Program-made: the position numbers and the translations under genes | Virus record (IMG/VR): IMGVR_UViG_3300012682_000229 | Coordinates: 1-24,202 of that record | DNA: 24,202 nt | Direction: 5' to 3' (one strand) | Source: a virus | Taxonomy: Duplodnaviria > Caudoviricetes | Notes under the pieces: model-generated | Told to the model about the DNA's origin: nothing | Seen by the model: only the letters and a program-made list of their open reading frames with translations | Database searches by the model: none | Shown here: piece by piece, positions 170 through 23,946 of the stretch | Layout of the letters: the number at the start of each line of letters is the position of its first letter | Numbering within the stretch: position 1 is the stretch's first letter

Positions 170-460
170 ATGACGCCGCAGACTATCCAGCTTATCGTCT
201 CGGGTGGGGCGTCTACCGTCTTGCTCTGGGTGGTGTGGCAATTCCTGAATGGGAACATCTACAGCAAGGTGGCGCACGAGGCGATTGTTGGCCCGATCAA
301 GGAATTGAACATCAGCTTGCGTCAGGAACTCAGGGAGCAAACGTCCGCATCGTCACAGGCCGTCATCGCCCAGCAAGAAGCCACCCGGCAACAGATGGCC
401 GAGTTGACGAAGACAAACGCGGATTTGGTGGCCGCAATCGCGGGCAAGGATCGGCTATGA
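170..460 (+). CDS. Small membrane protein (one TM helix plus coiled coil), holin-like/lysis-associated
   Basis: N-terminal hydrophobic stretch (IQLIVSGGASTVLLWVVWQFL) then a Q/E/L-rich helix. The stop overlaps the next ATG (ATGA at 457-460). Confidence 0.65.
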   Translation: MTPQTIQLIVSGGASTVLLWVVWQFLNGNIYSKVAHEAIVGPIKELNISLRQELREQTSASSQAVIAQQEATRQQMAELTKTNADLVAAIAGKDRL

Positions 461-720
461 GCCTGCTCAGCATGATCCGCAGTCGATTCCATGCTGACTC
501 ACACGATGACAGCGTGGTTGCGTCACGCGCCGCGATCGACGCGTCGAAGCAGGCCCGGAACCGCATGAACGAGCAGGTAAGGCAGGTCCAGCATGACGCC
601 TTCCAGACATCCGTTGACCAGCAGCGCATTCGGTCCAACATCCTTGACCAGGTGATCGTTCGCAAGACCGGGCCGGATTTCCTGGCTGATGCGCTGACCA
701 ATAAGGAGGGTGGGCCGTGA
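457..720 (+). CDS. Hypothetical helical protein (87 aa)
   Basis: ATG at 457 overlaps the previous stop, in the frame of ORF 127..720. Its own stop overlaps the next GTG. Confidence 0.65.
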   Translation: MSLLSMIRSRFHADSHDDSVVASRAAIDASKQARNRMNEQVRQVQHDAFQTSVDQQRIRSNILDQVIVRKTGPDFLADALTNKEGGP

Positions 721-1565
721 ACGCCGAATACGTAACAATCGGCATCACGGTCATCGCGGTGCTCGCCTTGATCGTGCTGGGTGCGCTCTTCCTGCTGTTG
801 TCGTTAGCCGGGCGCGTGCTGACCCAGGACGACGATCGCTCTCCGATGGGGAACGCGCTCGGGCACGTAACCGGATCAGCGGGCATCCTCTTGCTGTCCT
901 TCGATGGGGTCCTTGGTTTGCGGCTCTACGTCGGCCCGGCTTCGCCACTGGACCCCGAATGGTTGAACGTGACATTGCGCGTCATCCTCGCGGTGTCGGC
1001 TGTGTGGTGCCTGACCGCAGCGCTATTCGTCTTGCCGAGGTTGGTGGTGCGGCTCCTGAAGCACCCAGCGGACATGTACGAGATCAACCAGGCGGCGATC
1101 TTCGGCACCCTCGCCCAGGCAATGCCGATCATCGTGAGCGACCACGAGGGCACGATCCAGCACACCACCGCCGAGTTCGACGCCCTGGTGGGCGCGGTGC
1201 CCGGTGACCTGATCGGCAAGCCACTCGAAACGATCATGCCAGAGCGGTACGTTGCCGGACACGACCACGGGATGCAGCGGTACATCGAAACCCGTGAGCC
1301 ACACATCATCGGCACGGTGGTGGTCATCGACATGTTGCGACGGGATGGCGTGGAGATTCCGGTGTACCTCGCACTGAACACGACGGACGTGGACGGCAAG
1401 CCCTGGTTCGTGGCAAGCATTTGGCCCAAGCCGGAGGTGAAGCTGGAAACCCTGGTCGCGACGTTCAGTGACGGCGTATCCGAGACGATTACAAAGACGG
1501 CCAGCGATGTGGCGGAAGTCAAGAGAGATGTCAAAGAAGTACAACGTCAGATCGGTAAGGAGTAA
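717..1565 (+). CDS. Membrane-anchored PAS-domain protein (about 3 TM helices, FixL-like PAS, short coiled coil), no output domain
   Basis: RBS AAGGAGG before the GTG; three hydrophobic segments; PAS signature PIIVSDHEGTI...LIGKPLETIMPERYVAGHDHGMQRYIETREPHIIG...RRDGVEIPVYLAL...WFVASIW. Confidence 0.85.
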   Translation: MNAEYVTIGITVIAVLALIVLGALFLLLSLAGRVLTQDDDRSPMGNALGHVTGSAGILLLSFDGVLGLRLYVGPASPLDPEWLNVTLRVILAVSAVWCLTAALFVLPRLVVRLLKHPADMYEINQAAIFGTLAQAMPIIVSDHEGTIQHTTAEFDALVGAVPGDLIGKPLETIMPERYVAGHDHGMQRYIETREPHIIGTVVVIDMLRRDGVEIPVYLALNTTDVDGKPWFVASIWPKPEVKLETLVATFSDGVSETITKTASDVAEVKRDVKEVQRQIGKE

Positions 1566-1568
1566 CGC

Positions 1569-1928
1569 ATGAAAGCTTCAGATTGGCCACTCTACCGGTA
1601 TAAAGCCGCCGTGCAACGTGTAGTAGATGGCGACACTATCTATGCCGAGATTTCGCTTGGGTGCCGCGTCTTCATGGTGCGAAGCATCAGGATCATCGAG
1701 TACAACGCTCCCGAACTGTTCAGCGGTGATGAGCGCGGCGCCGGTAGCCTGGCGCGGGATGCCCTGGCCGACCTCCTGCCGATCGGCAGCCGGGTCTACA
1801 TCGAGACGAAGCTCGACCGGACCAGCTTCGACCGGCTCTTAGGAATCGTGTTCGTCGAGGGCAGCGACGGCAATCTGTTCAAGGTCAGCGAGTCGATGAT
1901 CGCCGGCGGGTTTGGAGAGGCCGGCTGA
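1569..1928 (+). CDS. Thermonuclease (staphylococcal nuclease/SNase-like)
   Basis: Motifs RVVDGDTI, IRIIEYNAPE and SFDRLLG; RBS AAGGAG; no signal peptide. Confidence 0.85.
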   Translation: MKASDWPLYRYKAAVQRVVDGDTIYAEISLGCRVFMVRSIRIIEYNAPELFSGDERGAGSLARDALADLLPIGSRVYIETKLDRTSFDRLLGIVFVEGSDGNLFKVSESMIAGGFGEAG

Positions 1929-1987
1929 TGGACAACGGGGAGCGCGTGGGCAGGGCGGGTCACATCATCACGACAGGAGCACCACTG

Positions 1988-2209
1988 ATGCCAAAGCCAG
2001 CAAATCCAGGAAGCCAGGGCCAAGCCGCCCGCAACAAGCCGAACCGGGGTCAAGACGAAAAGACCCATACGTTCGTGAACGCGGCCAGCGGGGAAACCCG
2101 CGAAGCCACGATGCGCGAATTCCGTGACACCCTTCGCGCCCAGGGATTCACCAAGCCGGAAGACGCTGCCGACGTCGCACCCACGCCCACGCCCGAAACC
2201 CCGGCCTAA
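1988..2209 (+). CDS. Hypothetical small protein
   Basis: RBS AGGAG upstream of ATG 1988. An alternative start at 1928 overlaps the previous stop. Confidence 0.6.
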   Translation: MPKPANPGSQGQAARNKPNRGQDEKTHTFVNAASGETREATMREFRDTLRAQGFTKPEDAADVAPTPTPETPA

Positions 2210-2252
2210 TCCGTATCGGGCCTGCCCTGCCCACGCGCTCACTGGAGGACTT

Positions 2253-2981
2253 ATGGACAACGGACTCGGACGACGCCCTCTCCCTGACGGCGATACAAAG
2301 CACCTGGAGCGATTCCCGATCCGGGGCGCGGTCCCGGACATCGTACGAACGGTGGAGCGCACCCTGGCCCTGCCGTACACCTACCGCGCGAAATACGACC
2401 AGGGTTCGGAGGGCGCGTGCGTCGGCTTCGCGTCTAGCTGGATGATGAGTGTTTTGAACCGGCGCTTCTACGACGCCCCATTCTTGTACCGCGAGGCCCG
2501 GAAGATCGACGAATGGCCAGGCGAGTCATATGACGGGACCAGCGTCCGGGCGGGGATGGAGGTGCTACGGACCGTAGGCCACAAGTTCCTCCACAACCAC
2601 GCGCACGAGCACGCGCCGTTGATCGAGGACGGCATCCACGAGTACCGTTGGGCGACGCGGGGGGATGAAGTGCGAAGCTGCATCGCCGCCGGCGTACCGG
2701 TCGTGTTGGGCGTCGACTGGTTGAGCAGCTTCGACACGCCGAAGAAAAAGAGCGACGGATCGCACTGGATTGGCGAGGGTGAGCTAGGGACGGTCCGGGG
2801 CGGCCACGCGATATGCGCATTCGGGGCCTCAGACCGTCGCCAGGCGGTGCGTCTGGTGAACTCATGGGGCAAGACATACCCACTGGTTTACCTTCCTTAC
2901 ACGACGCTCCAGCGGCTCCTGGACGGCATCCAATATCAAGGAGAAGCAGCAATTATCACCGACCGGATAGCGGGGAGGTAA
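2253..2981 (+). CDS. Papain-like cysteine peptidase (family C1)
   Basis: YDQGSEGACVGFA (oxyanion Gln and catalytic Cys), GGHAI (His), LVNSWG (Asn); RBS GGAGG before ATG 2253. Confidence 0.9.
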   Translation: MDNGLGRRPLPDGDTKHLERFPIRGAVPDIVRTVERTLALPYTYRAKYDQGSEGACVGFASSWMMSVLNRRFYDAPFLYREARKIDEWPGESYDGTSVRAGMEVLRTVGHKFLHNHAHEHAPLIEDGIHEYRWATRGDEVRSCIAAGVPVVLGVDWLSSFDTPKKKSDGSHWIGEGELGTVRGGHAICAFGASDRRQAVRLVNSWGKTYPLVYLPYTTLQRLLDGIQYQGEAAIITDRIAGR

Positions 2982-2990
2982 CGCATGGCG

Positions 2991-3569
2991 TTACGTGATG
3001 TTCTTCCAGGTGCGCCCTTTGGCGGCAGCATCCGTGGCACCTCGACGCAATCCAAGCCTACGTGCTATGTCGGCAAGCCTGACGCCATCCGCGTACAGCG
3101 CCCGAATCGTCCGCACAAGGTCAGGCGTGAGGACGGCGAGCGCGCCTCGTTGCGTGTTGACGGCACGTGTCACTGGCTCCAGGTGGTCAGGGTTCACACA
3201 GGAACGGACACGGCAGAGATGATCCAATTCGAGGTCATCAGGAACCGGGCCGCGTCGCTCCACCCAAAAGCGGATGTGCGCCCGCCCACTCTTGCCATTG
3301 CCGAGACTGATGATGCCGTACCCGTGGCGCACGTTGATGGACCGCTGCCAGACCCAGCACGGCGTAATGTACCCACGATCCTCTTCAACGTAGAGCAACG
3401 GAGACAATCGTAACTGGTGCCCTTGCGCCGCATAGCGTTTGTGGTGACCGAGATAATCGCCACGTTTAGAGTCCGTACGCGGATGGATACCAACGGGTTC
3501 GAGACAGCCGCACATGCATAGCCCGGATGGGTTTGGGTCAGGGAATGGTGGAGTACACTTCGAGGGCAT
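2991..3569 (-). CDS. HNH (homing-type) endonuclease with C-terminal HTH
   Basis: N-terminal LCMCGC, then CWVWQ..GYG, ELDHLCRVRSCVNPDHLEPVT..N, and HTH-like LADIARRLGL. Start placed at MPSK (3569) because of the RBS GAAAGGA. Confidence 0.9.
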   Translation of the reverse strand: MPSKCTPPFPDPNPSGLCMCGCLEPVGIHPRTDSKRGDYLGHHKRYAAQGHQLRLSPLLYVEEDRGYITPCWVWQRSINVRHGYGIISLGNGKSGRAHIRFWVERRGPVPDDLELDHLCRVRSCVNPDHLEPVTRAVNTQRGALAVLTPDLVRTIRALYADGVRLADIARRLGLRRGATDAAAKGRTWKNIT

Positions 3570-3635
3570 CGGGCGGTCCTTTCGCTTGGATGACATGCCC
3601 TCGGTGTCCAACCACGCGAGGGCTTCATTCCCCTC

Positions 3636-3644
3636 ATTATAGCA
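3636..3644 (-). promoter_or_regulatory. Extended -10 promoter for the HNH gene
   Basis: Minus strand reads TGCTATAAT (TGn plus consensus TATAAT) about 67 nt upstream of the HNH start. Confidence 0.7.
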
Positions 3645-3661
3645 GGGAATAGGGTGTTGAG

Positions 3662-5278
3662 ATGGCGTTATTCAACGCGGAGTCAACGCAGTATCGCAAA
3701 ATTGGAGACCTGACTCTCGCGCTCTACCGGAGCGAAATGAAACGTAAGGGGAGTCCGATGCTTCCCAATGCGCAGTTCGTTTGGGAAAGTGCGCGACCTC
3801 ATTCCGGACTATGCCTTGCTCAGATGATGCTCGAAAATCAACTGGCATCAACCGGCACGGTGATCCTGGCCGGCGACTACAACCAGCTTGGCCTGCGTCC
3901 GTGGATCGGTGACCCAACGGCGACGCACTACGTGACGGTGATCGACTACCAGACGCGGGCGAGCGTGGGCCAGACCATGTACGTGCCGCCTGAGGCGACC
4001 GGCGTGATCCGGCACCCGAGCGGCGGCGGCTACGGCTACTTCCTGCGGTTCGGGAACTACCCTGCCTGCGTCCGGGAGTGGAAGCGCCGGATCATCGACG
4101 ATCCGGGTTACAAGAACGGTGTGTACAATAATGCCATAACGCTGGAGCAGATGTGCGAAATCTACGCACCCAGCGGGGACGTTCACCCAGACACAGGCGT
4201 GGACAACGCGGAAATCGGATACGCCGGCAGGGTACGGACGTTCCTGCGGCAGTGGGCAGCGGCGGGCGGCGGCGAAACCGGCCCCTCCGAGACGGGAGCA
4301 CAAACAGGTATGCCAAAACCACCGATCCTGCTCGTGGCAGGACACCGCAGCACCGGCGACCCCGGCAATCCCGTGGAGCGGGGACTGACCGACGACCTCG
4401 CGCTGGCCTACGACCGCGTGTTCAAGGCGGCGGGCTACACCACCGCATACTTCCAGCGGGACGTGGACCGGGACAGTAATGCCACGATGACGAACGGCGA
4501 CCTGGCGACCGTCGCCGTCGGCTGCCGGAACTGGCTGGGCGCGCGCCAGGAAGCATTGAGCATCATGCTCGATCTCCACTACAACGGCTCGACCAGCCCG
4601 GTTCACACAATCGTACCGGACGTCACCGGCCTGAGCAGCGGCTTCTCCGGAGGCGCGCCTGCCGACGATACGGCGGCGGTCAACGTACTGGACAAACAAC
4701 TCGCCGAGCAGATCAGCCGCAAGATCGTCGCGGCCAACTCGGGCATGACCTTGTGGAACGGACGGTTCGGGCACATCGGCGTGATGAGCGAGCGGGATAC
4801 CGGCGTCGCCCTGAGCGGCGGCTACCGGCTCGGGATGTTCGGGGCGACGGCGCCCCATCGCAAGAAGGCGATACGTCTCGTCGTGGAGCACGGCGGGACG
4901 AACGACGCGTCGCGAACTGACTTCTTCAACAAGTGCGCTCGGGCCGCGCTGGAGGCGGTCCAGCAGGTGATTCCGAATCAGGGCACGGAGGAGCCGCCGA
5001 TCATAGAGCCGGAGCCACAGGGCACGGTGACGCTGCCGGCGGGCTTCAACCTGGCGACGGTGAAGCGGCTGTTCGGAAAGGTTGGCGTGTACAAGTTCGA
5101 CCCCAACGGCCCGGTCTCCGACTTGTGGCGCCTGAACCTGTTGGCGACCGGGCGCGCGCCGGAACTCACGCACGTCTGGACCGACGGTACGGCGAAGTTC
5201 TTCCAGTTTGCCGACGGAATGATTTTGTATCAGTTGACCCCGAGCGACGCAGTTGCGAAGCTTGGTCCCACCCCGTAG
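3662..5278 (+). CDS. Modular endolysin: N-terminal glucosaminidase(GH73)/lysozyme-like domain, Amidase_3 domain, C-terminal putative binding domain
   Basis: N-terminus LAQMMLE, YNQLGL, FLRF, YAP; amidase Zn/catalytic motifs LVAGH, VERGL, LDLHYN, LVVEHG; G/P/E-rich linkers between domains; near the holin. Confidence 0.85.
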   Translation: MALFNAESTQYRKIGDLTLALYRSEMKRKGSPMLPNAQFVWESARPHSGLCLAQMMLENQLASTGTVILAGDYNQLGLRPWIGDPTATHYVTVIDYQTRASVGQTMYVPPEATGVIRHPSGGGYGYFLRFGNYPACVREWKRRIIDDPGYKNGVYNNAITLEQMCEIYAPSGDVHPDTGVDNAEIGYAGRVRTFLRQWAAAGGGETGPSETGAQTGMPKPPILLVAGHRSTGDPGNPVERGLTDDLALAYDRVFKAAGYTTAYFQRDVDRDSNATMTNGDLATVAVGCRNWLGARQEALSIMLDLHYNGSTSPVHTIVPDVTGLSSGFSGGAPADDTAAVNVLDKQLAEQISRKIVAANSGMTLWNGRFGHIGVMSERDTGVALSGGYRLGMFGATAPHRKKAIRLVVEHGGTNDASRTDFFNKCARAALEAVQQVIPNQGTEEPPIIEPEPQGTVTLPAGFNLATVKRLFGKVGVYKFDPNGPVSDLWRLNLLATGRAPELTHVWTDGTAKFFQFADGMILYQLTPSDAVAKLGPTP

Positions 5279-5325
5279 CACTTGACAACGGCGAGCCGGC
5301 GCGCCCGGCACATGGAGCACGGAAC

Positions 5326-5769
5326 GTGAACAAGAACACCCTTCGCGACCTTATCGCCAGTATCATCGCGATCGCGATTATGGTCGCGCTGGCGGTTGGC
5401 ATCACCAGCCAGCCCCAACCAGCGGCCAGCGCACAGCAGGCGTTCGCAACACCGGTCGTTTCGGAACCGGTGTGCGATGAAGAGTGCGAACTGATCAACG
5501 AGTTGATTCTGATCCTGGAAGGCATCCTTGCCGGAGTGGAGGCGCCGGAGGTCGTGGACCTTACTGACGCCACGACGGGCGCGGACACGGAAGATACCGA
5601 GACCGGGGAAGTGTTCGACCTGATCACCGTCCTGCCGGATACTGGCACGGGGACGACGGCACAGAACGTTGTGTCAAGCGACACGAGCACCGAGGATGCA
5701 GCCATCATCGCAGACCTGATCGCCGAACTTACCGCGATCCTGGTCAACGCCCTGGACGGCATCGAGTAG
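5326..5769 (+). CDS. Acidic exported/membrane-anchored protein with an LPDTG motif
   Basis: GTG 5326; N-terminal signal/TM segment (LIASIIAIAIMVALAVGI), D/E/T-rich body, VLPDTGTG. Confidence 0.7.
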   Translation: MNKNTLRDLIASIIAIAIMVALAVGITSQPQPAASAQQAFATPVVSEPVCDEECELINELILILEGILAGVEAPEVVDLTDATTGADTEDTETGEVFDLITVLPDTGTGTTAQNVVSSDTSTEDAAIIADLIAELTAILVNALDGIE

Positions 5770-5815
5770 CCACACGCGGGCCAGCCGGCCCCGACGGCAC
5801 GATAGGAGAGACCAC

Positions 5816-5881
5816 ATGATTTTCAGCTCCGGACTCCTCGTCCTCATCATTGTCCTGGTCATTATTTGGCTTATCTTCTAG
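5816..5881 (+). CDS. 21-aa single-pass membrane microprotein MIFSSGLLVLIIVLVIIWLIF
   Basis: Strong RBS AGGAGA just upstream; entirely hydrophobic; fills the gap before the holin; below the ORF-track size cutoff. Confidence 0.65.
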   Translation: MIFSSGLLVLIIVLVIIWLIF

Positions 5882-5901
5882 TCCCACGAAAGGACACCCG
5901 T

Positions 5902-6225
5902 ATGGACAACAACACTGCGAACCAGATCACCATTCCGGCATCGACGACGGGGGTAGTCGTGCAGACGATCGCCCGCGCGGCGGTCAAGACCCTCATCCAG
6001 GCGTTCGTTGCTGGCCTGGCCCTGACGTTTTCACCGTGGTTGCTCGACCTATCGACGAACCTGGCCGGCGGTGGAGACGTGACGCTGGACGACATGAACG
6101 CGGGCGGCAAGATCATCGCCTCGGCCGCGGTCGGCGCCGTGGCGTCGGTCATCTCGCTGGCAACCAACTTCTTCGGCAAGACCCTGCCATCGGGCGAGAC
6201 CGTTACCGCGCAAACTACACCGTAG
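5902..6225 (+). CDS. Holin, r1t-like
   Basis: RAAVKTLIQAF resembles the r1t-holin ERAxKTxxQ motif; two hydrophobic helices; RBS GAAAGGA; downstream of the endolysin. Confidence 0.65.
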   Translation: MDNNTANQITIPASTTGVVVQTIARAAVKTLIQAFVAGLALTFSPWLLDLSTNLAGGGDVTLDDMNAGGKIIASAAVGAVASVISLATNFFGKTLPSGETVTAQTTP

Positions 6226-6465: not shown

Positions 6466-6494
6466 TTGACAACGGGATACAGGTAGGGTATAGT
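6466..6494 (+). promoter_or_regulatory. Sigma70-type promoter, repeat copy 1
   Basis: TTGACA-17 bp-TATAGT; spacer begins ACGGGATA. Confidence 0.85.
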
Positions 6495-6532
6495 TCTATC
6501 AACGGGTTGAGGCAGGGGCCACAACCGGAACG

Positions 6533-13203: not shown

Positions 13204-14051
13204 GCGTCAAGCTCCTCGAATTGATTGCCGACCTGACCGGGAAAGACCGAACAGTCACCTTCCCGAAAGCCTACGTGGAATGGCTCAAGGGCGACTATGT
13301 CGCAGCGGTCGTCCTGAACGAAGTGGTCTGGTGGACCCGGATCAGCTACGACAAGGGGCGCGAAGGTTGGTTCTACCGGAGTGAGGTCGAATGGCTGGAA
13401 GAGAAGGGCCTGAGCCGGAAGCAAGTCGTTCGTTCCGTGACCGCGATCAACGCCACTGCCGGGACGATACCGCTTATCGAGCGGATGACAAAACGCGCCA
13501 ACGGCAGTCCGACGATGCACTTCCGACTGAACGCCAGCGTGTTTGCGGACCTGGTTGAGGGCGAATGGAAACTGCCCAAAGGGCAAAAACCAACCTTCCC
13601 AAACGGCAGTTTCCATAGTGCCCAAACGGCAGAATCATTAACAGAGAGTACGACAGAGAAGACTACAGAGACTTTTGGCGCAAGCGCCACAACGCCAACG
13701 GCTACGCCAACGAGCAAGCGGGCAACTCAGGTAGCATCGGACTGGGCGCTAAACGAATCGCTCAGGGCGTGGTGTGCGGGCAAGGGCTATGGCGACCACG
13801 ACGTGGCGCGGGAGGCGGAGAAGTTCGTCAACCACTACACAGCCACAGGGGGCGTATTCAAGGACTGGTCAGCAGCCTTCAGGACGTGGATGGGGAAAGC
13901 CGAGAGTTACGGCCACATCAAACCCGCCAGACAGGCGATGAACCCAAGCGCGCGTGTGGACTCGATGGGTCGGCCGCTCCCCACGGCGGAAGAGCAGGCG
14001 GACCTTCACCGCCGCCACATCGAAGGGATCAGCGCACCATGGAAACCGTAG
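13200..14051 (+). CDS. Phage replication initiator/replisome organizer (N-terminal wHTH, internal iterons)
   Basis: AAVVLNEVVWW...GWFYRSEVEW..EKGLSRKQV wHTH; T-rich linker; C-terminal FVNHY...KDWSAAFRTW; lies immediately before the primase-helicase. Confidence 0.8.
   Translation: MSVKLLELIADLTGKDRTVTFPKAYVEWLKGDYVAAVVLNEVVWWTRISYDKGREGWFYRSEVEWLEEKGLSRKQVVRSVTAINATAGTIPLIERMTKRANGSPTMHFRLNASVFADLVEGEWKLPKGQKPTFPNGSFHSAQTAESLTESTTEKTTETFGASATTPTATPTSKRATQVASDWALNESLRAWCAGKGYGDHDVAREAEKFVNHYTATGGVFKDWSAAFRTWMGKAESYGHIKPARQAMNPSARVDSMGRPLPTAEEQADLHRRHIEGISAPWKP
13565..13632. repeat. Iteron array, putative replication origin
   Basis: CCCAAA(G/C)GGCA at 13575, 13598 and 13621 (23-bp period); perfect 12-bp inverted repeat ATGGAAACTGCC (13565-13576)/GGCAGTTTCCAT (13605-13616). 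Confidence 0.7.
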
Positions 14052-15757
14052 AGCGTGAGACATGGGGCGACCTCGGCATCCACGTCCGCGGCAACGCATC
14101 CAAGACCGTCTGCCCCAAGTGCAGCCAGACGTCCCGGCACAAGAACCGCACCGACCTGAGCCTCGACCTGCGCAAGGGCTTCTACAACTGCCACAACGAC
14201 GGCTGCGACTTCCGGGGGCGGCTCCGCGGCTGGAGCGATGCCGGCGACAACGACTGGCGCTTCAACGCCAAGCAGTACGTTCCGCCGCCGGTGCCGACCG
14301 AGCGCACCCTGGGTCCACGGGCACAGAAGTTCCTCCAGGACCGGTCGATCAATCCCACGATTGCCGCGACCCGCTACAAGCTCTGGTCGACCTACCGCGA
14401 CGGCAGGGAAGCCGGGATCGCCATCCCCTACCTGCGGGGCGATGAGATTGTCCACATCAAGTACCGGGCGATTGACGAGAAGAAGTTTTACTCCAGCGCG
14501 GACAGTGAGCCGATCTTCTACAACCTGAACGGGGCGGAGGGCGCCGAGACGGTCTACCTTTGCGAAGGCGAGTTCGAGGTACTGGCGCTGGCAACGGCGG
14601 GCATCCATACCGGGATGAGCGTTCCCAACGGGGCGCCCGGCGTGAACCAGGACGGAAGCGTGCAGGAGGCGGGCCGGAAGCTCGACTGCATGGCCTCCGG
14701 CGAGACGATCCTGAACAACGCCCGCAAGATCGTCCTGGCGATGGATGCCGATAGGCCCGGCCAGGTGCTGCGGGATGAGTTCGTGCGCCGGCTCGGCAAG
14801 ACCAGGACGCACATCATCGAGTGGCCGGATGGCTGCAAGGACGGCAACGACACGCTGAAGGAGTTCGGCGTCGACCTGTACCGGGAGATAGTCGAGGACG
14901 CGGCGCCCGTCCCGGTTGACGGCATCACCTACGCGATGGACGTCTTCGAGAGCGTCTGGGACGAGCGTCAGTCATCAACGCATCGGGGGCGGGAGGTGAA
15001 CCGCTGGCGGGACTTCAGCAGCCTGTTCCGAATGGGTGAAGGCCAGTTGACGATCGTTACTGGTATACCATCATCTGGGAAAAGTCACTGGATGCGGGCG
15101 TACATGATCAACCTCAGCGAAGTGCACGACTTCCGGGTGGCCATGTTCCCGCCCGAGGACGGGACGCCAACGACGTTCTTCTCCAAGCTGATGCGGATGA
15201 AGGTGCCGTTCTTCCACGAGATGCCCGAGGCGTACAAGGACGCAGCGTATGAGACGGCGGCATGGGTCCATGACCACATCGTGCATATCAACCCTAAGAC
15301 GCGGACCGTTCCGGAGATTATCGACCTGGCCAAGGTGCTGATCTTTCGCCACGGCATCAAGGCGTTAGTGGTCGACCCGTGGACCGAGGTTCGTTACCTC
15401 GATTGGTCAACCACCCCGGATCACATCCAGATCGCGAACGCGCTGTCGGACCTACAGGGGTTTGCCCAGGAGTACGGATTGGCGATCTTTATCGTGGCTC
15501 ACCCGACGAAGGAGAGTGGCAAGGATACTGGCCCGATCGGCATGTACGGCGTCCGGGGCACCGCGACCTGGGCAGATAAGGCCGACCGGTTCATCTCAAT
15601 CTACCGCGACACGGAGATTGAGAACAACACGACGGTGGAAATCCACGTCCTGAAGACCCGCGAGGAGGCGTTCGGCCGGAACGGGCAGATCAGCATGAGC
15701 ATGGACCCCACCACCAGGAACTATGTCGAGATCGAGCGGAGCGTCGTGTACAAGTGA
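14039..15757 (+). CDS. Bifunctional primase-helicase (T7 gp4/Twinkle type)
   Basis: Zn finger CPKC...CHNDGC; TOPRIM LCEGEFE, AMDAD, KDGND; SF4 helicase Walker A GIPSSGKS, Walker B LVVDPW, IVAHP. Confidence 0.93.
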   Translation: METVERETWGDLGIHVRGNASKTVCPKCSQTSRHKNRTDLSLDLRKGFYNCHNDGCDFRGRLRGWSDAGDNDWRFNAKQYVPPPVPTERTLGPRAQKFLQDRSINPTIAATRYKLWSTYRDGREAGIAIPYLRGDEIVHIKYRAIDEKKFYSSADSEPIFYNLNGAEGAETVYLCEGEFEVLALATAGIHTGMSVPNGAPGVNQDGSVQEAGRKLDCMASGETILNNARKIVLAMDADRPGQVLRDEFVRRLGKTRTHIIEWPDGCKDGNDTLKEFGVDLYREIVEDAAPVPVDGITYAMDVFESVWDERQSSTHRGREVNRWRDFSSLFRMGEGQLTIVTGIPSSGKSHWMRAYMINLSEVHDFRVAMFPPEDGTPTTFFSKLMRMKVPFFHEMPEAYKDAAYETAAWVHDHIVHINPKTRTVPEIIDLAKVLIFRHGIKALVVDPWTEVRYLDWSTTPDHIQIANALSDLQGFAQEYGLAIFIVAHPTKESGKDTGPIGMYGVRGTATWADKADRFISIYRDTEIENNTTVEIHVLKTREEAFGRNGQISMSMDPTTRNYVEIERSVVYK

Positions 15758-19410: not shown

Positions 19411-20058
19411 ATGAGCGAAGCTTGGCAGAGCCGGATCGTGCGACGGGAGCACGCTGACCCCACGGCGCTGAAAGCCTCGCCCGGGAACTGGCGGGAGCAC
19501 GGCGTCGCGCAGATGGACGCGGCGGAAGCGGTGCTCGATGCCAGCGGGTGGGTCCGGGACGTTCTGGTCAACGCGCGGACGGGGCACATCGTGGACGGGC
19601 ATCTTCGCGTCTCCATCGCCATCCGGCGCCGCGAGCCGACCGTCCCGGTGACGTACATCGACCTGAGCGAGGCGGAGGAAGCGTTGGCCCTGAGTACCTT
19701 CGATCCGATTGCCGACCTGGCGTTGGCCGACGGCGGGAAGCTAGCCGCGTTGCGCGGAAAGATGCTCCAGGGCAACGCGATCCTGGATGCGCTGCTCCAG
19801 CGGGCGATGGGCGGCGCCGGAGCCGCGGATGACCTGCCGACGGGAACGCTTCCGTTCCGGGCGAATGCGTTGGAGACGTACGCGACCGGCGACCAGCGGC
19901 AAATCTACGTCCCGCTCACGGTGGACGAGTACCCAGCGGTGAGCCAGGCGATCGAGCGGATCAAGGCACAGCACGACTACCCGCGAAACACGGACGCGCT
20001 GATCTGGCTGTTGCGTGAGGACGCCACGGCGCACGCCGGCCAGTCGATAGGGACATAG
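19411..20058 (+). CDS. ParB/Srx-like N-terminal domain protein, paralog 1
   Basis: PGNWREH, GWVRDVLVN, IVDGHLRV, VPVTYIDL. Confidence 0.85.
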   Translation: MSEAWQSRIVRREHADPTALKASPGNWREHGVAQMDAAEAVLDASGWVRDVLVNARTGHIVDGHLRVSIAIRRREPTVPVTYIDLSEAEEALALSTFDPIADLALADGGKLAALRGKMLQGNAILDALLQRAMGGAGAADDLPTGTLPFRANALETYATGDQRQIYVPLTVDEYPAVSQAIERIKAQHDYPRNTDALIWLLREDATAHAGQSIGT

Positions 20059-20062
20059 AACC

Positions 20063-20785
20063 ATGACGGAGACGAGCACCTGGACTGACAGGATCACACG
20101 GACGGCCGACGTTGACCCGCGGACGCTGCACGCGAATCCCAGAAATTGGCGGCTTCATCCAACGGCGCAAAAGGCGGTCATGACGGACGTACTGGACGAA
20201 CTCGGTTGGCTCCAGGGCGTGCTCGTCAACGAGCGGAGCGGCCTCGTCATCGACGGACACATGCGGCTGGACCTGGCGGTACGGCAGGGGCAGCCAACGA
20301 TCCCCGTCAGCTACGTCGACCTGAGCGATCAGGAAGAGGCGACGGTGCTGGCGACCCTGAACCCGCTGGGCACGCTGGCCGACGCCAACGAACTAAAGCG
20401 ACTGGCGTTGCGGGAGAAGATTGCCACGGACCGCGAGACCTTGCGGCGCCTGGCGGGATTCACCGCGCCGCCGGGGCGCGTCGACGACGACCCGGAAGCG
20501 GACGATGATATTACGGATCGGACCGACCTGCTTCACGATCACACGCGGCTGATAGCGGAAGAGGACGTGGATCGGGATGACCTGGCGGAGAAGGTCTACG
20601 AAGAGGACCCGGAGAACGCCTACGCGGCAATGACGATCAAGACCGTGAACTTCATCATGCAAGTACACGAGTACGCGCCACTAATCGACGCCCTCGAAGA
20701 CCTCTGCGATCGGGAAGGGCTGGAGACGAACGCCGACGCGGTGATCTGGCTCGTGCGGCACTACGGACCGGAGGATGACCAGTGA
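20063..20785 (+). CDS. ParB/Srx-like N-terminal domain protein, paralog 2
   Basis: NPRNWRLHP, GWLQGVLVN, VIDGHMRL, IPVSYVDL. Confidence 0.85.
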   Translation: MTETSTWTDRITRTADVDPRTLHANPRNWRLHPTAQKAVMTDVLDELGWLQGVLVNERSGLVIDGHMRLDLAVRQGQPTIPVSYVDLSDQEEATVLATLNPLGTLADANELKRLALREKIATDRETLRRLAGFTAPPGRVDDDPEADDDITDRTDLLHDHTRLIAEEDVDRDDLAEKVYEEDPENAYAAMTIKTVNFIMQVHEYAPLIDALEDLCDREGLETNADAVIWLVRHYGPEDDQ

Positions 20786-21627
20786 CCGACCACACGCCAG
20801 TCGAACGGAAGATGCCGCGGCGCACGCTCGACCTGAAGGAGTACAAGAGCCGGCAGCCCGCGGAGGACGACTACACCGAACTGGTGACCGATTCGACGCT
20901 GATCTACAACGACGAAACCGGCGACCTCGAAATTGTGTACCTGATCTTGCAGGACGACACGACGGCGATCGAAACCGCGTTGCAGAGCGTCACATTCACG
21001 AAGAGCGTGCGCACCAGCGGCCTCATCACCACGAGTCGAGTCGTTGGCAACCAGCCGCGGAACCTGCCCCAACGCGACAATTGCAGTGCGGCGGAACTGG
21101 CGACGGAGAACCCGTCAGCGCACCGGGTTGTCGCTGAATACGCCGAACGCATCAGCGGTATTTACCAGCAGTACAACCCGGACATGTACGATCGCCACCG
21201 CGCGACGACGGAGAAGGTGCTGCCGCAGTGGCGCATGGAGGGCGGCGTCTTCACGAGCGGAATCATCAACCGCAACAACCCGCTCAGCTACCACTTCGAC
21301 GCCGGCAACTTCAAGAATGTCTGGAGCAACATGCTCGTGCTGAAGCGGGATATCAGCGGCGGCTTCCTGAGCGTTCCGGAATACGACTGCGCTTTCGCCC
21401 TGCCAAACAACAGCCTGCTGATGTTCGACGGCCAGAGCCTGCTCCACGGCGTCACGCCAATCGGCCGGCACAGCGACGACGCCTACCGCTTCAGCGTTGT
21501 GTTCTACAGCCTAAAGAAGATGTGGCAATGTTTGCCGATCACCGAGGAAGTCGTGCGGTTGCGTCGGACCCGTACGGAGCGGGAGCGCAACCGGGCGCGC
21601 GGCATTGCAAAGGTGACCGAAGCGTGA
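20782..21627 (+). CDS. TET/JBP-like 2-oxoglutarate/Fe(II) dioxygenase
   Basis: FTSGIIN, H171-F-D173 (YHFDAGN), H222 (LLHGVTP), R236 (RFSVVFY). Confidence 0.88.
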   Translation: MTDHTPVERKMPRRTLDLKEYKSRQPAEDDYTELVTDSTLIYNDETGDLEIVYLILQDDTTAIETALQSVTFTKSVRTSGLITTSRVVGNQPRNLPQRDNCSAAELATENPSAHRVVAEYAERISGIYQQYNPDMYDRHRATTEKVLPQWRMEGGVFTSGIINRNNPLSYHFDAGNFKNVWSNMLVLKRDISGGFLSVPEYDCAFALPNNSLLMFDGQSLLHGVTPIGRHSDDAYRFSVVFYSLKKMWQCLPITEEVVRLRRTRTERERNRARGIAKVTEA

Positions 21628-22511
21628 AGATTACCCAGGTGGAAGCAGACCTCGTGGTGTTCGCCCGATACCACGTCGCAACCGGCGATATCGACCCCGC
21701 CTACCCGGTGCTGCGAAACCTGATGGACCGATGGGCGTTGACCACGGAGGAACGACTGTGGCTCTTGACACTGCACCTTGCGTACTACCAGATCGGCAGC
21801 GCGATGACCGCGTTCGAGTGGACCGCGGGACGCCCGGCACGACGCTACCCAGATGCGATGCGCCGCCTGCCTTGCAATACGGAGCGCCGCGGATTGCGGG
21901 GCGGGAAGGTGGTGGACTACCTCGACGTCAGCGGGCAGATCACCGGCTACGGCACCCAGGAACGGTACTGGCTGGCGGGCCTTCCCGATGAGCCGGAACG
22001 AGCGTTCGATGTGGCCTGGGCGCGCGCCCAGGCCATCCCCTACAACGGACGCTGGGCTGCTTTCAAGTGGATCGACCTCCTGATGCACACGATGGACGCG
22101 CCGATCGTCATGCCGGATATGCGCCTGGAGCAATGCACGGGACCCCGGGAAGGGCTTGCGTGGCTGTACGGGATCGACGACGACGCTACGGACAGCCTGA
22201 CGATGGCCGGCGAAGATGTACGAGGACGGCTCGCCAGGAAGGGGCAAGCGCTCCCGTGGGATCAGGTGGAGACGGTCTTGTGTGACTGGAACAGTCTGCG
22301 GAAGGGGCGGTATTATGTTGGTAACGATATCGACAGCCAACTCCACGATCTTGAAACGGCAGGGGGTATACCCAATTGCTACGACGACGCGATGCATGCG
22401 CGACGGGAATCTTTCCCCGACGCTTACCTCGGCGAACGGCACGGCTGGACTGGCCCGGACCGGGAACGCAAGCGCGTGTACCGGGATACCGGCGTGGTGA
22501 TCTTGCGATGA
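21624..22511 (+). CDS. Amino acid:DNA transferase-like protein (aGPT-Pplase/ADDT family)
   Basis: GDIDPAY, TERRGLR, NGRWAAFKWIDL, GPREGL, VETVLCDWNSLRKGRYYVGNDID; GTG 21624 overlaps the dioxygenase stop. Confidence 0.82.
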   Translation: MKITQVEADLVVFARYHVATGDIDPAYPVLRNLMDRWALTTEERLWLLTLHLAYYQIGSAMTAFEWTAGRPARRYPDAMRRLPCNTERRGLRGGKVVDYLDVSGQITGYGTQERYWLAGLPDEPERAFDVAWARAQAIPYNGRWAAFKWIDLLMHTMDAPIVMPDMRLEQCTGPREGLAWLYGIDDDATDSLTMAGEDVRGRLARKGQALPWDQVETVLCDWNSLRKGRYYVGNDIDSQLHDLETAGGIPNCYDDAMHARRESFPDAYLGERHGWTGPDRERKRVYRDTGVVILR

Positions 22512-23413
22512 AGATCGTGGTGGTAGGAGGGGGATTCTGGGGAGCCGCGACGGCGCTAATCGCACGGAAGGCCGGCCATGAGGCGGTGCTGTTGGACGAC
22601 GGCAACCCGCACGGCGCCAGCCGGAACGCCGCCGGCATGGTCCACCCCGAGTGGTACAAGCGCGCAACCGGCGATATCTACCGGATACCAAACCACTGGA
22701 GCAAGGCACATATCACCGAGAGTATCGACTGGCTCGTGACGGAGTGGGGCGCGAGCGACGCCGGCGAACTATTCAGCAGTTATTACGCACCCGAACGATG
22801 GCGGCACAAGCCAGGCTTGCGGACCCTGCGCGACCCGATGCACATACTCCAGGCGGCCGAACCCGTACGGGCGCACGTCAGCCGTCTCGCCCGCGTCGCC
22901 CAGGGATGGGTGGCACAGACTACGACCGGCGACGTCTACGAGGCGACAGCCGTCATCCTTGCCACCGGCGCGTGGACCGATGACCTGCTCCGCGCCAGCG
23001 GCTACCCGGAACTCGGTGTGACGATCTTGCGCGGTCATGCGCTTGTCGTCGGTGGAACCTTCGCCACGGACATACCGATGACCCGCTACGTTGCTCCCTA
23101 TCGACATTACACACTGCGCCCGTGGCAGGAGCGCGGCCAATGGCGGCTCGGCGATACCGTTGAGCGCACGATCAGCGACGACCGTGCCGCCGCCACACTC
23201 GAAACCTTGCGCGCGTTCGGCGGCACGATGCTCCCCGACCTAGAAGAGCGCACGGTCCTGGACGGGTATCGCCCGATCTGGCCCAAGCGTGGGATGGGCA
23301 CAATACGAATCGACACGGGATTGATCGTGGCAACTGGCGGCCATCGAATCGGGCTGGGCGTCGCCGCCCTCGTCGCCCATGAAGCCCTCCAACGAACGGA
23401 AGAGAACGCATGA
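22508..23413 (+). CDS. FAD-dependent oxidoreductase (DAO/glycine oxidase-like)
   Basis: KIVVVGGGFWGAATA Rossmann motif, GASRNAAG, VILATGAW, GYRP, ATGGHRIG. Confidence 0.9.
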   Translation: MKIVVVGGGFWGAATALIARKAGHEAVLLDDGNPHGASRNAAGMVHPEWYKRATGDIYRIPNHWSKAHITESIDWLVTEWGASDAGELFSSYYAPERWRHKPGLRTLRDPMHILQAAEPVRAHVSRLARVAQGWVAQTTTGDVYEATAVILATGAWTDDLLRASGYPELGVTILRGHALVVGGTFATDIPMTRYVAPYRHYTLRPWQERGQWRLGDTVERTISDDRAAATLETLRAFGGTMLPDLEERTVLDGYRPIWPKRGMGTIRIDTGLIVATGGHRIGLGVAALVAHEALQRTEENA

Positions 23414-23946
23414 TACCCATGCTCTACATCATCGGCCCGTCTGGCAGTGGGAAGACCACCACGCTCACGCACCTCCTGGCCGGTATCCCTGCTACGGATA
23501 TACTCCAGCCCATCGCCCACACCGTCTATACCACCGGAGCGATCCAGCTCGGCAAGCGGCGTGGCACGTTCTCTGGCACCGACGCCCTGTCACTCGGCGT
23601 CCAACCGAAGGCCATCGACTTCTTGCGCACCATCAGGCCGACCGCGCTGATCGCCGAGGGTGATCGACTTGCCAACGATGCGTTCTTTCACGAGGCGATG
23701 CGCCAGGAATACGACTTGCACATCATCCTCTTGGACGTCGATAAACAAGAGAGCGCCCGACGCCGGGCACAACGCGAACACCCCATGAGCGCGAGCTTCG
23801 TCAAGGGCCGCGAGACGAAGGCCCACAACCTCGCCAACCTCTGGGACCATGCGACACGTATCATTGACGCGAGACAGGGTGTTGAGGACGTGGTTGCCGC
23901 CTTACGCGACGAACCAGCGATCCGTGCCGCACGCGGCGAACGGTAG
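23410..23946 (+). CDS. P-loop nucleotide kinase of the DNA-modification-associated type
   Basis: Walker A GPSGSGKTT, FSGTDALS, AEGDRL, RRAQR lid. Confidence 0.85.
   Translation: MIPMLYIIGPSGSGKTTTLTHLLAGIPATDILQPIAHTVYTTGAIQLGKRRGTFSGTDALSLGVQPKAIDFLRTIRPTALIAEGDRLANDAFFHEAMRQEYDLHIILLDVDKQESARRRAQREHPMSASFVKGRETKAHNLANLWDHATRIIDARQGVEDVVAALRDEPAIRAARGER

Follow-up and report, generated by a model that had tools for sequence, protein, structure and literature searches.

Described heme-PAS sensors and phage lysis regulators

Holin accumulation and membrane potential are usually taken to set the clock of phage lysis. The systems closest to the phage protein reported below come from two fields, the heme-PAS proteins of bacteria and the lysis regulators of phages. 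FixL of B. japonicum and S. meliloti (PDB 1DP6, 2VV6, and 1D06; R220A mutant, 1Y28) is an O2 sensor that joins a heme-binding PAS domain to a C-terminal histidine kinase. Its residue numbering and roles are taken here from PMC10765370, according to which Arg206 and His214 bind the propionates and Arg220 donates a hydrogen bond to bound O2. The PAS-A domain of DosP (EcDOS) has the distal residues Met95 and Arg97 and a phosphodiesterase output. In PMC4263535, Table 1 included, the EcDOS substitution R97I raises the Kd for O2 from 20-21 to 500 uM (about 25-fold weaker binding) and speeds autoxidation 30-fold, from 0.0053 to 0.16 per min, M95 mutants bind O2 more tightly, and a FixL with a Kd near 700 uM is reported to be still O2 responsive. 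FG214 (PDB 10JX) is described in its preprint (bioRxiv 10.64898/2026.03.15.711900) as a bis-His protein, with the distal His at +19 from the proximal one and an HTH effector N-terminal to the PAS domain, in which heme ligation controls the monomer-dimer state.

Among phages, VqmA(Phage) of vibriophage VP882 is a PAS receptor whose ligand state launches lysis via transcription; according to PMC8284805, the protein binds the autoinducer DPO and is a soluble PAS-HTH factor acting on the lysis-lysogeny switch, with no late membrane cassette. In mycobacteriophages, proteins with one transmembrane (TM) helix that are coupled by ATGA overlaps regulate lysis (PMC13056207; 10.64898/2026.08.27.747656). 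The pairs LysF1a/LysF1b and LysA2a/LysA2b of D29 consist, in the accessible descriptions, of a one-TM, N-out/C-in helical protein joined by a 4-bp overlap to its neighbor, with a two-TM partner that may lie elsewhere; those descriptions mention no sensor domain. Phage PAS proteins are already on record in databases: uncultured phages have small proteins labeled "PAS domain," and further examples come from Cellulophaga phages. Our literature search covered titles and the beginnings of abstracts, with most subscription papers outside its range, and returned no phage heme-PAS protein at lysis genes. The feature reported below is conserved and is apparently undescribed in the literature searched.

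A predicted membrane-bound PAS protein in a phage late cassette

The window analyzed here is a whole linear virus record of 24,202 bases, estimated by CheckV to be about 35% complete. It runs from the end of a tail-like gene, assigned by eye, through a late cassette (170-6225) and a set of replication genes to a DNA-modification cluster. Within the late cassette, the third gene is an open frame for 282 aa with a GTG start and an upstream AAGGAGG, and its product has the following parts.

717..1565, + strand: triplet gene 3, 282 aa, with three TM helices, a FixL-type PAS domain, and a helical tail
723..1061, + strand: predicted three-helix membrane bundle (helices 3-35, 43-72, and 81-115)
1122..1433, + strand: PAS core, residues 136-239, aligned to BjFixL 154-257
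1260..1262, + strand: His182, equivalent to His200, the proximal heme ligand of FixL
1320..1322, + strand: Val202, which stands where FixL has its distal Arg220
1470..1559, + strand: C-terminal helix, residues 252-281, a heptad-like repeat tail of 4-181 aa in relatives

An earlier note, made by reading the sequence, had described this product as an orphan sensor with about three TM helices, a single PAS domain, and a short coiled-coil tail; hydropathy, Pfam, and AlphaFold2 together bear out this architecture, with a tail that is predicted to be helical. Hydropathy peaks lie at residues 10-28, 55-73, and 89-107, the middle one being weak (1.5). AlphaFold2 folded residues 1-118 into a three-helix bundle (pLDDT 91.9, pTM 0.81) and, for the full chain, placed the PAS core between three N-terminal helices and one helix in the tail; an N-out/C-in topology can be inferred for the bundle, which matched no known family and gave no significant fold match. 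In Pfam the protein exceeded the cut-offs of PAS_4 (PF08448; E 2e-6, 28.5 bits versus 23.1) and PAS (PF00989; E 9e-5, 22.9 bits versus 22.6). Profile and fold together place it in the PAS superfamily. At an E value of 0.01 or below, Pfam found PAS families only and no catalytic or HTH family, in agreement with the note's statement that kinase, cyclase, and HTH domains are missing. The reading frame stops 43 aa past the PAS domain; HisKA and HATPase domains were missing from all 24 family members scanned, and neither an HTH nor an EAL domain was matched in the members scanned.

A FixL-like pocket lacking the distal arginine

A phmmer search of the PDB with the 282-aa protein returned seven matches, all FixL (best E, 3e-12), and the alignment is ungapped across the heme pocket, just as the earlier note had stated. 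The structural superposition that the note had proposed bore this out: VIA placed model residues 136-239 on BjFixL 154-257 with a Z of 18.0 and an rmsd of 1.4 A over 104 residues. Foldseek and VIA both ranked FixL first. FG214 followed closely in the fold comparison (Z 17.7; profile match to the phage PAS family, E 3e-11), the PAS-A domain of EcDOS/DosP has the same heme-PAS fold (Z 15-16), and the best PAS domain outside FixL, FG214, and DosP reached a Z of at most 14.3. When a profile of the phage family was compared with the PDB, all 14 sequence matches were heme-PAS domains (FixL, FG214, or DosP).

The offset between BjFixL and phage residues is 18, by which His182 corresponds to His200, Arg188/Tyr189 to Arg206/Tyr207, His196 to His214, and Val202 to Arg220; the numbering of FixL Tyr203 and Gly224 used below is also derived from this offset. 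The proximal His and the following Arg-Tyr pair are thus kept, with Val in place of the distal Arg, as had been noted from the sequence. Conservation was judged on a single-sequence search, which gave an unbiased set of 31 proteins with 30 close relatives at 39 to 93% identity. The positions of L173-M174-P175, H182, Y189, and G199 are kept in all 31 rows, and Val202 is likewise invariant in 31/31, query included. At the propionate-binding positions, R188 is present in 27/31 rows and H196 in 27/31, the remaining four having Arg at the latter. The distal hydrophobic triad Ile197/Leu218/Leu220 is retained. The distal side is apolar, and no Arg, His, or Met occupies the ligand positions known from FixL, FG214, or DosP.

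The phage protein therefore shares with FixL its fold (about 31% identity), the proximal His, the Arg206/Tyr207/His214 positions, and the distal triad. It differs from FixL in having Val for Arg220, Gly for Tyr203, and Met for Gly224, in being phage encoded and without a kinase domain, and in carrying its PAS domain C-terminal to a swappable three-TM module. With FG214 it shares an effector N-terminal to the PAS domain; where switches of the FG214 type have a distal His at +19 or a Met at +16 and an HTH, the phage protein has Val201 at +19 from the proximal His, Ile198 at +16 (Met in 10/31 rows), and a membrane bundle. Counted by the offset from the proximal His, Thr200 and Val202 stand where DosP has Met95 and Arg97. 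Because the defining features of these groups are missing, the product of 717-1565 is predicted to be a FixL/FG214-type heme-PAS protein in kind and yet is no member of FixL, FG214, or DosP. The heme-type assignment is supported by these comparisons, and the domain likely binds heme, as judged from its sequence and modeled fold.

The main warning against the heme reading is a change inside the pocket. Across the family, Gly185 replaces FixL Tyr203 and a bulky residue (Met, Leu, Ile, or Val at position 206) replaces Gly224, and the combined signature of His182, Gly185, Val/Ile202, and bulky 206 was found in 55/55 well-covered family rows and in 0/740 other domains. The pocket may thus have been rebuilt for another ligand. 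EcDOS has Leu at the position equivalent to 206 and still binds heme.

A family with a conserved pocket

A profile search that covered 1.84 billion representatives was assessed through the best 150 matches listed, and these widened the family to 58 small single-PAS proteins, near-duplicate cluster members being counted. His182 is present in 58/58 of these members among the matches listed, so that the conservation of the His in homologs, a check named in the earlier note, held in the unbiased and the wider set alike. Residue 202 is Val or Ile in 57/57 family rows, one row being without that column; judging from this alignment, Val202 is a fixed family trait and no quirk of this copy. The comparison set from the same profile and the matches listed comprised 830 PAS domains of 126 other proteins, and 823 of them bear the His, a conservation that is partly by construction since these rows were chosen by their likeness to the family; the construction does not affect the contrast at position 202, where 598/823 of the His-bearing domains have Arg. 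The same profile search returned many giant proteins (P0038-P0096; 1,700-5,500 aa) with 10 to 14 tandem His-bearing FixL-like PAS domains.

We built a midpoint-rooted tree over 110 columns, with FixL left out, in which 24 of the 55 family rows were set beside those 45 other domains that scored best. The family formed one clade (support, 100/99) on a long branch (0.69). Its sister clade (95/94) comprises 11 domains of multi-PAS proteins, all without the distal Arg, and five of the eight proteins scanned have a kinase or cyclase domain. This suggests that the distal Arg was probably lost before a phage acquired the domain. These Arg-less FixL-like sister PAS domains also have Gly185 (P0152, P0154, P0157, P0167, P0109, P0158, P0171, and P0181); the proteins are kinases, a cyclase, and PAS-only fragments and are apparently uncharacterized. 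The phage PAS domain is under purifying selection, with dN/dS values of 0.10-0.22 in 10 of 15 pairs, the other five being saturated. The GC3 of the PAS gene, 0.81, falls within the 0.76-0.86 of the other phage genes.

Three family members sit on contigs of Chloroflexota metagenome-assembled genomes. Such short contigs (2.8-7.2 kb) may be phage fragments caught in the binning; the host of the PAS-bearing phages is likely to belong to the Chloroflexota. Elsewhere, a GTDB search gave six distant PAS domains only, 50,697 annotated phage records held no family relative, and scans of IMG/VR confirmed none for the PAS family or for the first gene of the triplet described below.

Interchangeable membrane modules and an optional tail

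Three TM helices are predicted in 48 of the 55 members with a whole N-terminal part. Among these 55, the modules fall into nine sequence types with an HHalign probability below 6% between types, and in one pair of relatives (P0024 and P0011) the PAS domains are 94% identical and the tails 100% identical, with 21% identity between the TM parts. The tail is 4-181 aa long and measures 20 aa or less in 9/56 members. It cannot therefore be the essential output. What is constant in the family is a PAS domain with some three-TM module; the tail is optional. Several relatives (P0006, P0010-P0018, and P0022-P0026) have Asp/Arg-rich, seven-residue tail repeats in highly variable copy number, up to 181 aa.

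The membrane module showed little likeness to known proteins. Pfam holin profiles matched 0/24 members at an E value of 1 or below, PHROG holins matched 1/24, at an E of 0.64 only, and all Atlas matches for the TM part scored below 0.9. In structure comparisons with the TM model, the best viral model had an E of 0.22 and holin-labeled rows lay at 1.0-1.8. No PAS-less relative of the TM part was found among 549 candidates. Since the PAS domain is shared across unrelated TM modules, a generic output would fit the family, for example oligomerization, for which FG214 offers a precedent; free swapping could equally mean that the TM part is a passive anchor.

A conserved gene triplet next to candidate lysis genes

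The PAS gene follows two small genes on the same strand.

170..460, + strand: first gene of the triplet, 96 aa, in which an N-terminal TM helix (8-26) precedes a helical tail, like LysF1b in architecture only
457..720, + strand: triplet gene 2, 87 aa, no TM helix, N-terminus basic and amphipathic-looking by eye

Gene 2 overlaps gene 1 and the PAS gene by 4 bp each, and gene 1 had no family match at an E value below 0.01. A metagenome scan gave 21 loci, of which 15 with distant PAS domains were dropped and six family loci kept: the window's own contig and five phage-like fragments (63-93% identity). All six share one contig-name prefix and hence one assembly; the context covers 6 of the 58 members. 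The PAS gene was third in a triplet (one-TM helical, small soluble helical, three-TM PAS) at 6/6 loci, and all 12 junctions were 4-bp ATGA or GTGA overlaps. The first slot held a one-TM gene at all six loci, in two unrelated sequence types. Locus L003 combines the window's TM type with the other gene 1 type; gene 1 and the TM module thus need not match. At the same locus, triplet gene 2 (264-491) looks like a hybrid, its N-terminus resembling those of L004-L006 and its C-terminus the window's, which suggests from sequence comparison a crossover inside the gene.

The triplet might also be likened to an actinophage cassette that has PF23778 (Phage_holin_2) in third place. This found no support: PF23778 matched nothing anywhere in the window's genome, and there was no match over the cut-off in 33 + 5 viral records or 151 genomes. 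The triplet does recall the mycobacteriophage regulators, since the window has both of their architectures, a one-TM protein at 170-460 and a two-TM protein at 5899-6225; this likeness is architectural only and is drawn from the available descriptions of those systems, in which, unlike in the triplet, no sensor domain is described.

Upstream of the triplet lies a PHROG tail fiber match in L004 and, by eye, tail-like genes in L001, L002, and L005. Downstream in the window are the following features.

1569..1928, + strand: nuclease (PHROG 452 endonuclease, E 3e-16), next after the PAS gene in L001-L003
1988-2209, + strand: 73-aa ORF with no family match
2253..2981, + strand: papain-like peptidase (PHROG 16701, E 1e-23)
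2991-3611, - strand: HNH gene, inserted before the lysin candidate in the window
3662..5278, + strand: likely endolysin, 538 aa, glucosaminidase-like plus Amidase_3-like
5317-5769, + strand: 150-aa protein, encoded after the lysin candidate and before the holin-like gene
5899..6225, + strand: two-TM holin-like protein; L002 has one too, and PHROG 443 holin was matched only at E 0.035

A nuclease follows the PAS gene in all three loci that reach far enough, and peptidase, lysin, and two-TM holin-like genes come after the nuclease in both loci that reach that far. In L002, the lysin slot holds a PHROG endolysin/amidase (E 3e-9). The 3662-5278 product matched nothing in Pfam, PHROG, the PDB, or phage genomes; of its Atlas matches that have a family, the ten best all point to Amidase_3 or its clan, a lead with a score of 0.86, and His228, Glu239, His306, and Glu409 can be read by eye as a zinc-amidase set. 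From these Atlas leads (below 0.9), the motifs, and the L002 slot, it is likely an endolysin. The note's placement of the sensor in a lysis region is supported in so far as the gene keeps, at 6/6 loci, its place in a coupled triplet flanked by tail genes and genes of lysis type. A lysin is visible downstream in only 2/6 loci, and the window's own lysin candidate has leads but no library match.

Several minor observations concern this region. In both L001 and L002, the lysin is set apart from the triplet by the nuclease and the peptidase. The 73-aa ORF is missing at the same place in L002. The lysins of the window (3662-5278) and L002 (4798-5778) are unrelated and occupy the same slot, though the PAS genes are 93% identical. 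In the 150-aa protein, which matched no family, a hydrophobic helix at the N-terminus leads into a highly acidic body (26 D/E, 3 K/R). Gordonia phage Sixama has a distantly related peptidase inside its lysis cassette, with lysin A on one side and the holin on the other; the same does not hold for Streptomyces phage BillNye. Among 33 viral records with the peptidase, 0/33 carried the PAS family, in a search run with no positive control.

Possible functions of the PAS protein

Our preferred reading, which we hold tentatively and at somewhat under an even chance, is that the protein is an oligomerization switch, controlled by the state of its heme, on a lysis-regulatory membrane module that reads redox state, heme, or NO/CO. 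In a first step, His182 would quite probably hold a five-coordinate heme b under an apolar roof of Ile197, Val202, Ile204, Leu218, and Leu220. The input would then be the Fe(II)/Fe(III) state, heme loading, or NO/CO, and not stable O2 binding. The fixed Val/Ile at 202 argues for such inputs and makes FixL-style O2 sensing by the family unlikely, so that the note's gas/redox sensor would be favored in its redox, heme, or NO/CO form and disfavored in its FixL-like O2 form. The output would be PAS self-association relayed N-terminally to the attached three-TM module, with the heptad tail as an optional tuner. Since there is no enzyme, the tail is optional, and TM modules are freely exchanged, self-association, known from FG214, is favored as the output needing the least specific coupling; a heme-driven change of oligomer would cluster or release the three-helix module. 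A ligand switch of the FG214 or EcDOS kind is counted against by the missing His and Met at their distal-ligand positions. In a final step, which we rate slightly above even, the triplet would work with the separate two-TM holin-like protein and the lysin and help to time host lysis. Counted against the reading as a whole are the three-TM part without a holin match and the nuclease and peptidase genes that separate the triplet from the lysin.

It is rather doubtful, though possible, that these elements amount to chemically gated lysis, that is, an Arg-less heme switch on interchangeable lysis-cassette membrane modules in phages likely of Chloroflexota. Host redox or NO/CO would then set the moment of burst with no kinase, second messenger, or transcription. 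Were that so, a phage could monitor the physiology of its host directly at lysis, by way of a cofactor-bearing sensor attached to a membrane protein of the cassette. The family would also offer a natural Arg-less FixL pocket for asking what a heme-PAS domain senses without its O2-gripping residue, and a switch of about 110 residues that can be joined to membrane modules of unrelated sequence.

The PAS domain might instead be heme free, binding some other small hydrophobic ligand or serving as a mere dimerization module of a lysis-cassette membrane protein. The remodeled pocket, unique to the family among the domains compared, and the long family branch speak for this, and VqmA provides a precedent for a phage PAS domain in which a non-heme ligand drives dimerization, according to PMC8284805. 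We regard this as unlikely, for a heme-free domain need not keep the His, its surrounding helix, and Arg188 and His196 (or Arg), and the solved sequence matches, 14/14, are heme binders.

An unlikely reading, too, is a late-operon heme protein acting on the host or envelope, as a heme sink, a poison of host PAS kinases, or an agent of superinfection or lysis inhibition. A fixed host partner would be expected to keep the PAS domain far more conserved than the TM module, as is seen; the sister clade brings together PAS domains that belong to kinases and a cyclase (five of eight proteins scanned), and the TM part resembles no holin. Against it, both overlaps with phage-type small genes are kept at 6/6 loci, and a separate clade on a long branch does not look like a host domain copied recently. 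A search of 119 candidates for fused or host-like long forms came up empty, though this is a weak argument.

A true FixL-like O2 sensor that gates lysis by oxygen level is less probable still. FixL is the closest protein in fold and sequence and the distal triad is kept. There is also no distal Met to displace, so that affinity could exceed that of EcDOS R97I, the nearest measured analogue of the family's Val/Ile pocket, given the tighter binding of M95 mutants in PMC4263535. Yet the hydrogen bond donor to O2, Arg220, is missing in every family row with the column, and the analogous EcDOS mutants bind O2 weakly and autoxidize at least 30-fold faster. The tighter binding of the M95 mutants and the responsiveness of a low-affinity FixL mean that O2 is disfavored only. 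Finally, the gene might be a hitch-hiker with no function, born of the chance fusion of a host PAS fragment to a membrane gene of the cassette. This would fit the seemingly limited spread, with no relative in the annotated phage records or IMG/VR scans, but is highly improbable and largely refuted by the selection data, as well as by the 58 intact or contig-cut members in one clade among the matches listed, the retention of the PAS domain through at least nine TM-module types, and a GC3 like that of other phage genes.

Other features of the genome

The search made against Rfam gave no match, and a promoter-like site at 109-137 was not above chance (2 found, 1.4 expected). A near-consensus sigma-70-type promoter (6466-6494, + strand; 11/12 matches) lies just before the early-type genes that start at 6507. 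Two further regions of the window are as follows.

14048-15757: primase-helicase, among the replication genes
19411-23946, + strand: likely DNA hypermodification cluster

The cluster includes two ParB-like genes, a Tet/JBP oxygenase (E 5e-18), an ADDT amino acid:DNA transferase (1e-16), an FAD oxidoreductase (DAO), and P-loop kinase 3 (9e-22). An O2-dependent enzyme and a heme-type sensor are thus both encoded in one genome.
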